A stretch of DNA of 64,000 nucleotides from Phycisphaerae bacterium (GTDB lineage: Bacteria; Planctomycetota; Phycisphaerae; UBA1845): the NCBI GenBank assembly GCA_963666835.2, contig CAXXGO010000006.1:1408001-1472000 (forward strand), written 5' to 3'. The position numbers and the translations under genes were made by a program. Of this stretch, positions 21,083-26,178 are shown piece by piece (the stretch's first letter is position 1; the number at the start of each line of letters is the position of its first letter). The notes below the pieces were generated by a model. The model ran no database searches. It had not been told where the DNA came from and worked only from the letters and a program-made list of their open reading frames with translations.

Positions 21083-21556
21083 ATGGCAATTGAATGGCCC
21101 ACCACAGCATGCGAAGTGCTGAACGATGATCCGTTGATCATCAAGAATGCCAAGACGTGGCATCACTCCCACAGCTACGGCGGCTGGGGGAAGTTCTTCA
21201 AGGGGCTGCGCGAGAAGAAGCTTTTCGCCACGCGCTGCACCAATCCTGAGTGTGAGGAAAACCGGCTGTGGCTGCCGCCCCGTTGCGAATGTGTCGATTG
21301 CTGGCACAAGACCGAATGGGTCGAAGCTCCCCAGCAGGGGCGGATATACACCTTCTCCACGGTGACGTACCCGGGCGAGCTATTCAAGCTCCCGGCCGGC
21401 ACGCCGCTGATCAGCATCGAGATCGAAGGGGTCTGCACCAAGCTGATGAGTTGGTTGAAGGAAGGCAAGCCCGAATTCGGAATGCCGGTGAAGGCCGTGT
21501 TCAACACTGCTAATCCGACGAACACGATCCTGGACCTGGCTTGGGTGCCGGCTTAA
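21083..21556 (+). CDS. Zn-ribbon/OB-fold protein (DUF35)
   Basis: FFKGLREKKLFATRCTNPEC..LPPRCECVDC..WVE..GRIYTFSTV..GMPVKAVF. Confidence 0.9.
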   Translation: MAIEWPTTACEVLNDDPLIIKNAKTWHHSHSYGGWGKFFKGLREKKLFATRCTNPECEENRLWLPPRCECVDCWHKTEWVEAPQQGRIYTFSTVTYPGELFKLPAGTPLISIEIEGVCTKLMSWLKEGKPEFGMPVKAVFNTANPTNTILDLAWVPA

Positions 21557-21597
21557 CGTCACCCTAAACGAATTGTGACGCAGGTAGCAGTTGACGC

Positions 21598-21633
21598 CGC
21601 CCGGCAAGGGACCCTTGCCGGGCGGTGTTTTGT
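21598..21633. terminator. Probable (bidirectional) intrinsic terminator
   Basis: ccgcccggcaaggg-a-cccttgccgggcgg inverted repeat followed by tgttttg, between convergent genes. Confidence 0.7.
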
Positions 21634-21693: not shown

Positions 21694-22347
21694 TCAGAAT
21701 CGCTCGTTTCCGAATTCGGCACAGTACGGTTTTTGGCGTATCTGTGCGGACGTGCGGTTCAAAGCGTGAAGTACGTATCCTGGAAGCACGACCCTCCACG
21801 GGCCATCGCCACATAGGCCGAACTTGGGCAGCAATCTCGATTGTTGACCAGCCATCGGGTAGATGGCTGCGATGGTATGCCGGTCGACCTCAGGCAGTTC
21901 TGCCGCTTCGATCTTCAGCAACTCAATACTCACTTGGCGGTAACCGTCGAGGACAAACCCCACACAGCTATATCGGCGATACCTGCGCACCCGAGTGTTT
22001 GGATCCACCTCATCTTTCCAAGGCGGATCGACAACATATTGGCGCGTCCTTTCGGCTCCAGCAGTGTGATACTCGTCAGCGACCTCCGCGATCCATGCCG
22101 ATAGTTCCTTGATCTCATCACTGGTCAGCGGAACATGTCCTGCTACATGCACCTTCATTGCCTCTCCACGCCCGAGTGGCGGCCGCATGTGAACGGCGTA
22201 TACATCGTCCTCTGCTTCGGCAGAGCATCTATCTGCGTCGTGCAAACCAACGTGCGCTATCAGGCGACGTTCCTTGTCGGCATACATTCCGATTACATCG
22301 TACCTGGATAGGGTATGCGGCCCGCGGGCAAGATCAAGAATGGGCAT
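21694..22347 (-). CDS. Hypothetical protein, probable permuted NlpC/P60 (papain-like) cysteine hydrolase
   Basis: YDVIG..IAHVGL (His) precedes QY..RRYSCVGFVLDGY..IEL (Cys); GGAG RBS before ATG 22347 (alternative TTG 22374). Confidence 0.6.
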   Translation of the reverse strand: MPILDLARGPHTLSRYDVIGMYADKERRLIAHVGLHDADRCSAEAEDDVYAVHMRPPLGRGEAMKVHVAGHVPLTSDEIKELSAWIAEVADEYHTAGAERTRQYVVDPPWKDEVDPNTRVRRYRRYSCVGFVLDGYRQVSIELLKIEAAELPEVDRHTIAAIYPMAGQQSRLLPKFGLCGDGPWRVVLPGYVLHALNRTSAQIRQKPYCAEFGNERF

Positions 22348-22370
22348 TTGGCACTCCGGAATGCATAGAC

Positions 22371-23432
22371 TCAATCCGCCCCAAGCACATCAATCGCGCG
22401 GTTAAGCAAGGCGCGAGGTGCATCCGGAACCACAGCAGTTCGATTTGCCCAGACCTCTCGCAGTTCACACAGCTTGCGACGCAGCCGCCGCACGAACCAC
22501 GCGGCGCCCAGATCCCGGGCAATACTCACTACACGGCATGTTTCGCTACTTGCCATCGCGGCCAGGGCGTAGATGGCAAGGTGCGCCATGGCGGCGCTCT
22601 GGCTTACTGTAATGGCGTACCGATTCAGTAGGGACTCCGCGATCTGGGCAACTTCCTCTGCAAGATCCGCGTGCCGGTCCACATCCATCGGGGGCTGCGC
22701 TTCAAAGATGCGACCAAGCATCTTGACGGTCACGAGACTCGTCTCGACGGAATGACCCGGTTGCAGTAACGGGTGCAGAGAGTCGGCATCATCCGGGGCT
22801 AACATCGAGGCACCCGTGCGAATCGCAGCCAACACGACTGCCTCGTCGTGAGGGTCAGTGCTATCACGATACCGTTTCGCAAAGTTCAAGAACCAGGGCG
22901 CGAGTCGGCTGCTATCGTTAACGGTGAAGCTTGTGTCCTCAGCGAGCAGGATCATCTTACGCAATCGAGGCAGGTCTGATTGGGCATCCGCCTGGAGGAT
23001 CTCCGCAGCAAGTACCGCCGGAGCCCATAACGAGATGTCATCCGCATTGGTTTCGCTGTCCCGACCATGCAAAGGCCTCTCAACTGCGGCGGACTCCGCC
23101 AACACCATACCGGCAGCGGTCCTCTCGTCCCAACAACTGCCACGGTTCGACCTCCCGCATTGCTGCATCAATGCTACTATATCCGAAAGGCTGAATGCTC
23201 GGCTCGCCCCGTAAGATGGCGCGTCAATCCCGTCTGACTGGATGTCCCCGCCACGCTTCCGGATTCCACTTACTGCTCCCCACTCGCCTTCGACATGCAA
23301 TTGGTCTTGTGCAGGACTACAGAATCTATAGGGACCATACCCGTACTGCCAATCTGGCCCATCTGAAACCCGACGGCCTTCTAGTTCCGTTGATGGTGTT
23401 TGTCCCTTTTGACCTTCGATTGCATCAGACAT
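22371..23432 (-). CDS. Hypothetical protein with a helical (HEAT-like) C-terminal region
   Basis: 353-aa ORF, 8-bp overlap with the upstream gene; amphipathic Ala/Leu-rich helices. Confidence 0.65.
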   Translation of the reverse strand: MSDAIEGQKGQTPSTELEGRRVSDGPDWQYGYGPYRFCSPAQDQLHVEGEWGAVSGIRKRGGDIQSDGIDAPSYGASRAFSLSDIVALMQQCGRSNRGSCWDERTAAGMVLAESAAVERPLHGRDSETNADDISLWAPAVLAAEILQADAQSDLPRLRKMILLAEDTSFTVNDSSRLAPWFLNFAKRYRDSTDPHDEAVVLAAIRTGASMLAPDDADSLHPLLQPGHSVETSLVTVKMLGRIFEAQPPMDVDRHADLAEEVAQIAESLLNRYAITVSQSAAMAHLAIYALAAMASSETCRVVSIARDLGAAWFVRRLRRKLCELREVWANRTAVVPDAPRALLNRAIDVLGAD

Positions 23433-24150
23433 CGCTCGGTCCCTTCTGCATACCGCGAGTCAGCGGAAGATTGGGGACACGCCCAGGCAGCCAAGTCTCT
23501 ATGGATTGACCGAGAACGTCGAGTTTGCCTTTTGCCTTCTTGGCCTTCTCTGCAACTTCTACCACCTGCTCGTATGTCAGCTCTGCTTCGAAGGACTTTG
23601 GCAATCCGTCCTCACCAGTGGCGATGATATGCAGACGCGTGTACGGCATCATCCCCTCAAGCTTCTCTCGATTCCGATCGAAGATCGGTCTTAAGTCGCA
23701 GATCAACTCGACCGTCTCAAGTTGCTGCCCGGTCGTTTTCGCCAGACGCTCGGCCTTGCGATAACGAACCAGAGCAGGGTAGGGTTGGATCAATTCACCC
23801 AAAGCTTGCGTCAACCGGGTGAGTGTGTCCTCGTCGCAGGGCGGATGCTCCTCGTCAATGGCCTGCTTCAAGTCTCCGATGATACGCTCCACGTCTGAAG
23901 GCATAAGGTTTCGGATTGCTCTTCCCACCGCGTCCGCCGACTTACGGTCTTGGATGACCTCGTGGATCGATGTGAGCAGACTTCTGAGATCTAGAAACCT
24001 ATCGGCTTTGGCCAAATGCTTCCGAATCCCTTGGATCTCTTCGTCCGATAAGCTAGCGATGGTCTTTAGGTCGTCCACCATGCCCGGGATGGAGCTTGGG
24101 CGCTCAAGGAACGGCGAGTAACCTCGGATGAACATGACTGGCTCTGGCAT
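23425..24150 (-). CDS. Hypothetical protein with a COMM-domain-like C-terminus
   Basis: Helical N-terminus, then KAERL..QLETVELICDLRPIF..MPYTRLHI..KSFEAELTYEQVVEVAEKAKKAKGKL (three strands plus a long helix). Confidence 0.6.
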   Translation of the reverse strand: MPEPVMFIRGYSPFLERPSSIPGMVDDLKTIASLSDEEIQGIRKHLAKADRFLDLRSLLTSIHEVIQDRKSADAVGRAIRNLMPSDVERIIGDLKQAIDEEHPPCDEDTLTRLTQALGELIQPYPALVRYRKAERLAKTTGQQLETVELICDLRPIFDRNREKLEGMMPYTRLHIIATGEDGLPKSFEAELTYEQVVEVAEKAKKAKGKLDVLGQSIETWLPGRVPNLPLTRGMQKGPSDV

Positions 24151-24457
24151 GATCTTCTATCCCCGGTTTTCGCCCTCGAAGCGGGCTCTTACCTTGTGTC
24201 CGATTGTGCAACGCTGTGAAATCTAAGTAATTCCGCCACATCACTCCGCCGAATACTAGGCCGCGTCGGACTTTTGGCAACCCCTCTGAATCATCCGACA
24301 GCGACGGTGTACATCGCAACAACAAACGACACAGATAGACGCCTGGGTCTGCGATCACCAAGAGGACCGCGGGAGCGTTGGCAGAAGCGAAGGCAACCGC
24401 ATTGCGCAACGGGCGTCTGATTTAGCTGATAGGCGTCGCGGCGTTCTCCTTTCTCGC

Positions 24458-25276
24458 CTACTTACCGCCGGCGCACATGGGGCGGAGGGCTTCGAACAGG
24501 CGGCGGCTTTCGCGGCAGGCGCAGTCGCACGGGTCACACACGAAGAACGCTCTATCGCCCCGGCCGCGGGTACGCCGAAGAAGCCGGCCGATCCTCCGTA
24601 CGCACTCTTCGGTTTCATCGGTGGCTTGGCTTGCGGCGGTGTTCACGATTACGACGTCGCTTTCGAGTAGTCCGTGGTACGGTTGTTGGAGCTGGACGCG
24701 TGTCGCCAGCTCGTCACCGAGCGGAGAACAGAGGAACGCCTTCATTTGCGATCGGGTGAGCATGTCACGCTGCTCGGGAGGTTGCGGCTCGTCCATCGTC
24801 GTGCCGGCGTCGAGCCCGAACATCTCCGAAGCGAACGCATGCGTGTCGTCCAGAATCCGCTCAAACTCGGTCGCCGCACGCACCGGGTCCCGGAACACGA
24901 CATCCAGTCTCGTCGGGGTCGGCATGACGAAGACCCGGTAGTCGTAGGGGTAGGCGTAGCGTAGGGCCGCGTCGGCGTCCGCCTCTACGGCCACAGACCC
25001 GAAACGGTCGACGCGATGTATGGCGGTCAGCGCGTCCGGCAGGACTTCGAAGACGTGATCCGCGTCGTAGTCGATCCACCGAGCGCTGGCGATACCCCAC
25101 TTTCGCGGAGAGCTGGCCCCCTTGGTCGGCGGGAATTTGTCGCCCCCTTTTCTGACCAGGCGGATGTAGTGTGGACGATGCGCCCACAGCCGATCGACCA
25201 TTGTCCGGATGACGGCGCTCTTTCCCGAGCGTCTAGGACCACTGACAAACGTTACACCCAAACCCATATTCGCCAC
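24458..25276 (-). CDS. Hypothetical P-loop-containing protein
   Basis: VTFVSGPRRSGKS Walker A-like motif; LESDVVIVN resembles SIMIBI GTPases. Confidence 0.65.
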   Translation of the reverse strand: MANMGLGVTFVSGPRRSGKSAVIRTMVDRLWAHRPHYIRLVRKGGDKFPPTKGASSPRKWGIASARWIDYDADHVFEVLPDALTAIHRVDRFGSVAVEADADAALRYAYPYDYRVFVMPTPTRLDVVFRDPVRAATEFERILDDTHAFASEMFGLDAGTTMDEPQPPEQRDMLTRSQMKAFLCSPLGDELATRVQLQQPYHGLLESDVVIVNTAASQATDETEECVRRIGRLLRRTRGRGDRAFFVCDPCDCACRESRRLFEALRPMCAGGK

Positions 25277-25557: not shown

Positions 25558-26178
25558 TCATGAGCCGGACGCTGCGAATCCTGCGGGCTGGTCTGCTTCC
25601 GACTTTGCTCGCCGCAGGGCGAGGATCAACTCGACCTCGCCGGTGGTGCGTTCGGCCTCGCGAGCGATATCCGCAATCGGCAATCCGCCGTCTGCCAGGC
25701 GATAGACGAGGGCATGTCGCTCGTCCGGCACCTCTTCCGTCGGGGGCGAGGCTGCTCCGTCGTCCTCGCTTACGGTTACGTCCAGCGCATCTCCGGTGCC
25801 GACGGTCCGAGCCAGGCGAGAGAGCTTCTCGATCCGCTCGTCGGCGTCCCGGATCACCGTCTCCAACTTGGCGAACCGCGTGTCGATTCGCCCATGAATC
25901 TGCCGGGCGAGCTGGTCCAATTCCAACATCACCCGCTCGACATCATGTCTGACGGCGGACTCTCTTTGCAGGTCGGCATACATCTCGCGTGCGGAGGTCC
26001 GCGGAGCCGTTCGGCGGACGCGCAGCCGGCGATACGTGGAGATCATTAGTATAGTCAGCCCTCCGACGGCGAGAGCCAGCATGATGAGCTGGGAAGTGCT
26101 CACCGGATTCGCCCCGAAGGATGCCGCCAAACCGGCAGAGGCCGCGTTAGAACTGGTCAACGGTATCGTGACGTCCAT
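25558..26178 (-). CDS. Membrane-anchored coiled-coil protein with a C-terminal HTH (DUF6115/DUF2802-like)
   Basis: TM segment, coiled coil, VYRLADGGLPIADIAREAERTTGEVELILAL. Confidence 0.75.
   Translation of the reverse strand: MDVTIPLTSSNAASAGLAASFGANPVSTSQLIMLALAVGGLTILMISTYRRLRVRRTAPRTSAREMYADLQRESAVRHDVERVMLELDQLARQIHGRIDTRFAKLETVIRDADERIEKLSRLARTVGTGDALDVTVSEDDGAASPPTEEVPDERHALVYRLADGGLPIADIAREAERTTGEVELILALRRAKSEADQPAGFAASGS

Follow-up and report, generated by a model that had tools for sequence, protein, structure and literature searches.

A patchily distributed three-gene cassette places a prokaryotic COMMD-like protein beside a predicted permuted papain-like Cys-His enzyme in Planctomycetota

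Do three tightly packed genes of a planctomycete, none of which finds a significant match in Pfam, form a functional unit, and if so, of what kind? The question arises from a stretch of 64,000 nucleotides (the window) of the genome of a Phycisphaerae bacterium (assembly GCA_963666835.2, contig CAXXGO010000006.1, positions 1,408,001 to 1,472,000 of the forward strand). A preliminary description of this DNA had recognized in it an orphan operon of three co-oriented, tightly coupled minus-strand open reading frames (ORFs), assigned to a COMM-like protein, a HEAT-like protein and a permuted papain-like hydrolase. The ORF listing of the window confirms the arrangement, with frames at 23425-24150, 22371-23432 and 21694-22374, all in the same orientation; we designate these genes A, B and C and refer to them jointly as the cassette. 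Their features are as follows:

23425..24150, minus strand: gene A, COMMD-like protein (241 amino acids, ATG start)
22371..23432, minus strand: gene B, no known family (353 amino acids, ATG start)
21694..22347, minus strand: gene C, predicted circularly permuted papain-like Cys-His enzyme (217 amino acids, ATG start)
21694..22374, minus strand: gene C, alternative long form (226 amino acids, TTG start)
23425..23432, minus strand: A/B junction, an 8-bp overlap ATGTCTGA formed by the stop of A and the start of B

Co-occurrence of the three genes in a fixed order, the test set beforehand for a joint unit, holds in loci from genomes and from metagenomes. Searches with A located 31 genomic loci, 27 of which have at least 1900 bp of sequence downstream. 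The order A-B-C is kept in 26 of these 27, with C present in 26 and B detected by profile hidden Markov model (HMM) in 24, in the same order and orientation; two further loci carry a B-sized ORF that clusters with B. Searches of metagenomes with C left 80 loci, 63 having at least 400 bp and 46 at least 1900 bp upstream. B lies upstream of C in 59 of the 63, and the 46 loci with more room contain B in 45 cases, A in 34, a divergent gene of 240 amino acids at the place of A in four, and neither of the latter two in eight, so that A or a divergent A-like gene precedes B in 38. Because B adjoins C in 45 of the 46 loci while A or its divergent counterpart is found in 38, B and C are the core pair of the cassette. 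Order, orientation and tight spacing persist down to 25-30% identity, and identity to the proteins of the window falls jointly across loci (Spearman coefficients of 0.83 for A and C, 0.78 for A and B, and 0.77 for B and C). The label "orphan" has to be given up: at E ≤ 1e-3 more than 100 homologues exist for every one of the three proteins (103, 157 and 152), and prokaryotic COMMD-like proteins have already been published (Liu et al., Nat Commun 2026, PMC13392464).

The junctions between the genes are equally close. The 8-bp overlap ATGTCTGA, in which the ATG of B occupies 23432-23430 and the TGA of A occupies 23427-23425, suggests translational coupling, and the same junction occurs 3' of the A homologue in another locus, L018. 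Between B and C there is either a 4-bp overlap, if C begins at the TTG at 22374, or a 23-nt gap, if it begins at the ATG at 22347. The ATG has GGAG seven bases upstream and is the start favored by homologues of C, which are usually 217 residues long and hardly vary at M10 and P11 (alignment A1, 40 sequences); residue numbers of C given here (His41, His62, Cys137) nonetheless follow the 226-residue form. Alignments of homologues back the long forms of A (241 residues) and B (353 residues). The public gene call for B (P0224) comprises only 245 residues, equivalent to 69% of the ORF; the alignment with homologues extends back to the ATG at 23432 and so favors the 353-residue protein.

Variation among loci bears on how the genes may be connected. 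The region of B that precedes its conserved domain has a median length of 140 residues (range 102-194) in 64 loci with A; in eight loci without A the median is 73.5 residues (42-148), and five of these eight have a region shorter than that of any locus with A. Given the tendency towards a shorter region in loci that lack A, the N-terminal region of B may be read as its link to A, and the C-terminal domain as its putative link to C. The divergent 240-residue family at the place of A (L075:4234-4965, L095:998-1708, L100:142-870 and L119:476-1195) has a stop codon that overlaps the start of B. Compared with A by hhalign (alignment A4), it gives a weak match that is collinear over 129 columns (probability 6%, E 0.006), and it may represent a very divergent COMMD-like protein. 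In L018 (768-4124, on the same contig as L006), a 44% identical A homologue has no B-C pair downstream; it is followed by a DUF5678-containing protein of 203 residues, which has no similarity to B, and a retropepsin-like aspartyl protease, with an AbiLi-like ATPase (E 2.2e-64) convergent beside them. Only pieces of B (235-336) and of C (4-48 and 54-88, in different frames) are found in L003/L004 (G026:C9), from a genome of the same order as that of the window, and this locus looks like a decayed copy of the cassette.

The nature of A emerges from structural comparison. Searches of Pfam, NCBIfam and PADLOC returned no significant match, and the Pfam COMM_domain model, derived from eukaryotic proteins, matched neither A nor any of 40 aligned homologues at E ≤ 1. 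An AlphaFold2 monomer model built on those 40 homologues has a mean predicted local distance difference test score (pLDDT) of 70.8, local values being 80-94 for the HN domain and 54-71 for the COMM domain. Its build is that of COMMD proteins: a helical HN-type domain (approximately 24-140), followed by three antiparallel strands (143-157, 164-178 and 184-192) and a long C-terminal helix (193-220). Foldseek comparison of this model with the PDB gave 17 matches at E ≤ 1e-3, of which all those listed are COMMD or COMMD-like proteins; the best is 9q6a (E 1.8e-9), and human COMMD subunits of Commander match as full chains at E 6e-6 to 1e-4. The VIA structural comparison aligned A with 9q6a at Z 10.9 over 192 residues, the next unrelated rows standing at about Z 4. 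A profile of the 40 homologues also finds 9q6a by sequence, in a match that is marginal (E 6.2e-4) but collinear and nearly full length (positions 19-216). On these three results the COMM-like assignment of the preliminary description stands, and A is a prokaryotic COMMD-like protein.

Two properties of the A model deserve mention. The COMM domain and the C-terminal tail (220-236) are far more conserved than the N-terminal domain, and the tail, modelled as disordered despite this conservation, reads like a candidate docking motif. By analogy with the solved bacterial COMMD-like protein, A would form a homo-oligomeric ring, and the low confidence of its COMM domain when modelled as a monomer would fit an obligate oligomer. 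Complex prediction with two copies of A (residues 17-227) and full-length B scored 0.00 against a mark of 0.32, which constitutes evidence in neither direction.

Prokaryotic COMMD-like proteins are the subject of the 2026 paper cited above (PMC13392464), the main text of which states their function to be unknown, as does a follow-up preprint (10.64898/2026.02.02.703414). That paper reports solved octameric and decameric rings, 9q6a and 9q6c being an octamer from a Flavobacteriaceae bacterium, and notes that prokaryotic members escape sequence methods. It considers gene context in Myxococcota (where this is type VI secretion system (T6SS)-like), Chlamydia and Haloarcula, and its main text predicts no partner among the neighbors. 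At least seven entries of its dataset carry Planctomycetota taxonomy identifiers and one carries a Gemmatimonadota identifier. The words operon, papain, cysteine, defence and defense do not occur in its main text. In the literature searched, no paper was found that ties COMMD-like proteins to an operon of this kind, to an NlpC-type bacterial enzyme or to phage defence, and on COMMD proteins and Planctomycetota only the 2026 paper proved relevant.

With 9q6a, A shares the two-domain build, the best structural match, a near-full-length profile match and occurrence as a single copy, A being single-copy in its own genome like the published family members. Whereas the published proteins have no predicted partner, the A subfamily is tied to the fixed genes B and C. 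The eukaryotic COMMD1-10 proteins of Commander (8p0w, 8f2r, 8esd, 6bp6) have the same fold (VIA Z 4.0-5.0), and the COMM domain of A alone superposes on Commd9 with a target template modelling (TM) score of 0.71 and a root-mean-square deviation (rmsd) of 3.4 Å over 79 columns. Identity to the eukaryotic proteins is, however, only 11-15%; one gene stands against ten paralogues; and in place of the Commander partners CCDC22, CCDC93 and Retriever, A is accompanied by B and a predicted cysteine enzyme. A thus adds one more member to a known family; the A-B-C cassette as a whole, built around the B-C pair, seems not to have been described before.

The AlphaFold2 model of C is of high confidence (pLDDT 93.0, predicted TM score 0.90). 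Foldseek found no match to it at E ≤ 1e-3 in either the PDB or a set of viral models. In the VIA comparison with 48,161 chains, the leading matches were 2if6 (YiiX; Z 9.0, 148 residues aligned, rmsd 4.5), 3kw0 (a Bacillus cysteine peptidase; Z 8.2) and 6v98 (the T6SS effector TseH; Z 7.0, 118 residues aligned). Later rows included the DUF862 deSUMOylase DeSI (2wp7; Z 5.4), the MARTX RID domain (5xn7), PLAAT4 (7zot; Z 4.0), Aichivirus 2A (7zv6) and CLN5 (6r99; Z 3.5); a second VIA search against the PDB yielded no further relatives past 2if6 and 3kw0. Of the nine top rows, eight belong to permuted members of the papain-like/NlpC-P60 class. Among 40 sequences extending down to 32% identity, H41 and C137 are invariant and H62 and H203 nearly so. 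The model places both histidines on strands (His41 on 38-45, His62 on 56-63) and makes Cys137 the first residue of helix 137-146. Both the fold similarity, which is of moderate strength, and the layout of the residues, with His41 preceding Cys137 in the sequence, are those of permuted papain-like proteins. Because the list of hits is coherent and the catalytic residues are well placed, C is assigned, as had been proposed at the outset, to the circularly permuted papain-like (YiiX/NlpC-P60-type) Cys-His fold and is a predicted enzyme.

Sequence relationships within this fold class are remote. Neither C nor 39 aligned homologues matched any Pfam family, Peptidase_C92 (PF05708) included; C had no significant match in NCBIfam or PADLOC, and its profile retrieved from PDB sequences only two rows at chance level. 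Alignment by hhalign with eight Peptidase_C92 sequences was weak, spanning only 53 columns about the cysteine at a probability of 9.6% and E 0.0033, although it places Cys137 on the invariant cysteine of that family. Given no Pfam match and so weak an alignment, C therefore represents a separate family of the same fold class, that is, a new family of a known fold. This class is shared with YiiX/YaeF (Peptidase_C92; 2if6, 3kw0), TseH, DeSI/PPPDE, RID, LRAT/PLAAT, Aichivirus 2A and CLN5, and motifs of Peptidase_C92 sequences from the same order resemble those of C; unlike members of these families, C has no sequence-level membership in any of them, carries extra N-terminal strands and is paired with a partner gene, B. 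A basic RRYRRY stretch ahead of the cysteine hints at a possibly acidic substrate. The genome of the window separately contains a 731-residue open frame with a canonical Peptidase_C92 (YiiX-like) domain (G000:C1:1672207-1672683, L124; E 1.3e-17), and akin forms of 718 to 737 residues occur in two genomes of the same order.

B resists assignment to any family. It has no significant match in Pfam, PADLOC, NCBIfam or PDB sequences, and Pfam applied to 43 members of its family disclosed no recurrent family and no HEAT or ARM match. A profile of B run against 1.84 billion representatives recovered 561 relatives at E ≤ 1e-3, all through the C-terminal domain (approximately 130-352), corresponding to about 560 clusters at 50% identity. 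The N-terminal part (approximately 1-140) is variable save for an invariant D63/Q65/S66 motif (alignment A3). The C-terminal domain (approximately 141-353) is conserved and rich in Ala and Leu, with a dominant helical periodicity, and is probably helical, as judged from its sequence. In the Protein Atlas the window's own B is weakly recognized and without a model; the model of a homologue, P0273, is poor (pLDDT 0.49), its neighbors being mostly HEAT, ARM, Adaptin and Tuberin clusters at TM scores of 0.33-0.49, under the bar set by the tool. The designation "HEAT-like" is accordingly a weak lead. No fusion of A and B was apparent, in that none of up to 128 B-family representatives matched the A profile; one family member, P0415, matches the first 37 positions of the divergent-A profile. 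In another, P0308 (412 residues, on a 1582-bp contig), the usual N-terminus is replaced by 190 residues with a DPPY-type DNA methyltransferase motif, which may be a real fusion or an artefact of gene calling.

The distribution of the cassette is sparse. A is present in three of 401 sampled genomes of the phylum, and neither A nor C occurs in any of 24 genomes of the same family; in its own genome the cassette is single-copy. Among the 31 genome records found through A, 28 carry Planctomycetota in their titles and one Hydrogenedentota, and some protein records are named Desulfobacteraceae or Gemmatimonadetes. The G+C content of the cassette is 0.567, as compared with 0.607 in the left flank and 0.622 in the right. 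In six relatives of the same family a thiolase/OB-fold gene pair is conserved and followed by other genes, so that synteny ends there, and the cassette in the window sits at this break beside the pair; none of the right-flank genes of the window lies within 10 kb of the pair in those six genomes, and hence no clean empty site could be defined. No flanking gene recurs across loci among 290 picked ORFs. None of the three proteins has a hydrophobic segment or a signal-like N-terminus (maximal 19-residue Kyte-Doolittle means of 0.53, 1.32 and 0.87 for A, B and C). Taken together, these features are those of accessory, mobile DNA.

In the window, the immediate surroundings of the cassette comprise the following:

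21594..21628, no strand assigned: perfect G+C-rich hairpin of 15 pairs, assessed by folding energy against shuffles
24253..24280, minus strand: weak sigma-70-like promoter match (TTGCCA, 16 nt, TAGTAT), about 100 bp upstream of A
24458..25276, minus strand: P-loop-like ORF (272 amino acids), 307 bp upstream of A and co-oriented with it

The hairpin that had been noted downstream of the three genes is indeed present, as a strong G+C-rich fold (-32.1 kcal/mol, z = -4.89, equalled by none of 200 shuffles) situated between C and a convergent OB-fold gene ending at 21556. A consensus terminator scan lists no sites in the region because the hairpin has no T/U tract, and the structure is likely a two-way transcription stop that dispenses with one. 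The sigma-70-like matches, two in the region against 1.2 ± 1.2 expected, are no better than chance. Five sequencing runs, from two studies, contain this DNA, and none is recorded as RNA. The upstream gene at 24458-25276 has a P-loop-like N-terminus with weak AAA_16 and AAA_22 matches below curated cut-offs; it had been considered conserved-looking, but no relative was found in any of 35 loci searched (the 31 found through A and four others), and it is outside the three-gene unit. Further upstream, an ORF of 206 residues (25558-26178, minus strand) shows sub-threshold Pfam matches over its first 124 residues to LapA_dom and DUF3611 (membrane) and to SPAM and WASH_WAHD (coiled-coil-type), and towards its C-terminus it is similar to DUF2802 and, at an E of 2.8e-7 that falls short of the curated cut-off, to the C-terminal domain of the SpiroCoCo family.

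To characterize gene neighborhoods elsewhere, we scanned 202 flank proteins with Pfam and PADLOC; 49 of the scanned loci carry C, nearly all with B. Pfam assigned the flank proteins mostly to housekeeping genes. The A-B-C genes of L037 are situated inside a bacteriophage exclusion (BREX) locus, with PglX (E 4e-84) on one side and, on the other, BrxC/PglY (1435 bits) and then PglZ (E 5.5e-246); a short second C-like fragment between the intact C and brxC (L037:3687-3809, residues 186-226, 44% identical) may be left over from a cassette that occupied this slot before. In L084 the C-terminus of PglX (E 1.2e-119) directly precedes B-C. In L085 the 3' end of pglX is present in three direct copies (90-96% identical), and a different cassette follows each: Septu PtuA/PtuB the first, B-C the second and an AbiL/PDC-M38A-like ATPase the third. 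The pglX copies in this locus (L085:1375-7501) are about 380 nt long and accompanied by two copies of a brxC 5' fragment (83% identical), and the ATPase cassette includes DUF3226; the arrangement suggests exchangeable cargo units repeated in tandem at the pglX-brxC junction of a BREX locus. TmtA (E 1.2e-106) adjoins A in L031, and A in L025 is immediately preceded by a type II methyltransferase gene. The cassette thus occupies, in L037 and L084/L085, the same pglX-brxC/pglY slot as known BREX-embedded cassettes (Septu, AbiL-like), from which it differs in that A-B-C has no PADLOC homology and most of its loci are outside recognizable defence islands. In qualitative terms, the use of one variable BREX slot by this cassette and by known defence cassettes is strong evidence; the frequency of such neighbors over all loci is not. 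Five of the 49 loci, the BREX-slot cases among them, have neighbors suggestive of defence, and the rest show nothing specific.

We put at roughly 45% the probability that the cassette is a horizontally mobile module producing a soluble cytoplasmic machine for genetic conflict, whether phage defence, abortive infection or an addiction-type system. A more specific version, close to the sensor/scaffold/effector module suggested in the preliminary description, in which the cassette would be a new anti-phage or abortive-infection system whose COMMD-like ring acts as sensor or scaffold and controls the papain-like effector via B, is a doubtful proposal. In such a machine A would assemble into a homo-oligomeric ring; B, as the obligate partner of C, would regulate, inhibit or adapt it through the helical C-terminal domain; the N-terminal extension of B and the disordered tail of A would dock B-C onto the ring; and on a trigger Cys137, His41 and His62 of C would act on an amide or ester bond of a cytoplasmic target, by cleavage or transfer. 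Several observations weigh against a role in conflict. A strong, specific defence neighbor within three genes occurs in only the five loci L025, L031, L037, L084 and L085, a count for which there is no baseline rate, and L084 and L085 belong to a single lineage; no specific defence neighbor was seen in the remaining 44 loci, and the cassette of the window itself sits among metabolic genes. The 25 flank proteins scanned with PADLOC on account of defence-like Pfam names were picked and are not a survey; the other 177 yielded nine matches at PADLOC E ≤ 1e-10, all generic (UvrD, methyltransferase, HIT, radical SAM and the like) save the TmtA fragment of L031 already counted. A and C have no match in PADLOC-DB 2.0, and B reaches PDC-S70 in only five of 43 members, at a best E of 0.006. 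Viral contigs scanned with A gave one weak match of 65 residues (27% identity, E 2e-4) and no clear relative. Finally, the Z scores of 7 to 9 for C lie in the range in which the tool warns of chance arrangements.

The housekeeping character of most neighborhoods, with loci set among ordinary metabolic and informational genes, instead favors a physiological complex, in which a COMMD-like ring and B would organize a cysteine hydrolase or acyltransferase acting on a protein conjugate or a membrane lipid. The structural neighbors of C include lipid- and conjugate-processing enzymes (PLAAT4, CLN5 and the DUF862 deSUMOylase), and eukaryotic COMMD proteins work in endosomal trafficking, according to the main text of PMC13392464. 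Such a role fits poorly with the rarity and patchiness of the cassette, within the phylum and the family alike, and is further opposed by its low G+C content and varying neighbors, by the lack of membrane segments in all three proteins, and by the statement in the same main text that other Commander subunits have no prokaryotic counterpart beyond generic folds; we consider it unlikely. The membrane-trafficking module raised in the preliminary description falls under this explanation and has no support beyond the fold of A. The resemblance of C to TseH brings in a different possibility, that of an orphan type VI-like secreted-effector module with C as the effector, B as its immunity protein and A as adaptor or chaperone. 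In Myxococcota, COMMD-like genes are reported in the same paper to cluster with VgrG, PAAR and DUF2169 genes; the genome of the window carries TssC/VipB (G000:C6:2117224-2118129, E 2.9e-116) and PAAR (C6:2131336-2131545) genes, at some 686-700 kb from the cassette, and a weaker second VipB-like match on contig C1; and among the clusters that a feature search of the Atlas returned for a B homologue is "Immunity protein 30", whose value of 0.87, short of the 0.9 bar, makes it a lead only. The distance of about 686 kb to TssC speaks against this explanation, as do the absence of VgrG, PAAR and Hcp families from the 202 flank proteins, the failure to find DUF2169 in the genome of the window (92% complete), and the lack of an N-terminal delivery domain in C and of a signal peptide in B. 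TssC occurs in seven of 20 cassette genomes (of completeness not known) as against 97 of the 401 in the phylum sample, which indicates no dependence, and the secreted-effector explanation is on balance quite improbable. That the genes are mere neighbors without a joint function, A in particular being a passenger beside an independent B-C pair, would account for the eight of 46 loci with room that keep B-C without an A-like gene and for L018, which keeps A without B-C. It is very hard to reconcile with the overlapping start and stop codons, the conservation of order, orientation and spacing at low identity, the correlated divergence of A, B and C, and the shorter N-terminal extension of B in five of the eight loci without A, and we give it very little credence.

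Whichever role applies, the cassette provides one COMMD-like subfamily with two fixed partner genes, one of them a predicted enzyme with a clear catalytic dyad, and the function of COMMD-like proteins therefore becomes directly testable. Even if that role is physiological, B-C constitutes an undescribed family of enzyme and partner, and C a new permuted papain-like family. Should the BREX-slot context reflect the role of the cassette, it would represent a new protein architecture in bacterial immunity and would bear on the origin of a core piece of eukaryotic trafficking. If the proposed anti-phage function is true, it would be the first function for prokaryotic COMMD-like proteins, and the COMMD ring of Commander, like several other eukaryotic modules, would have relatives in bacterial conflict systems.

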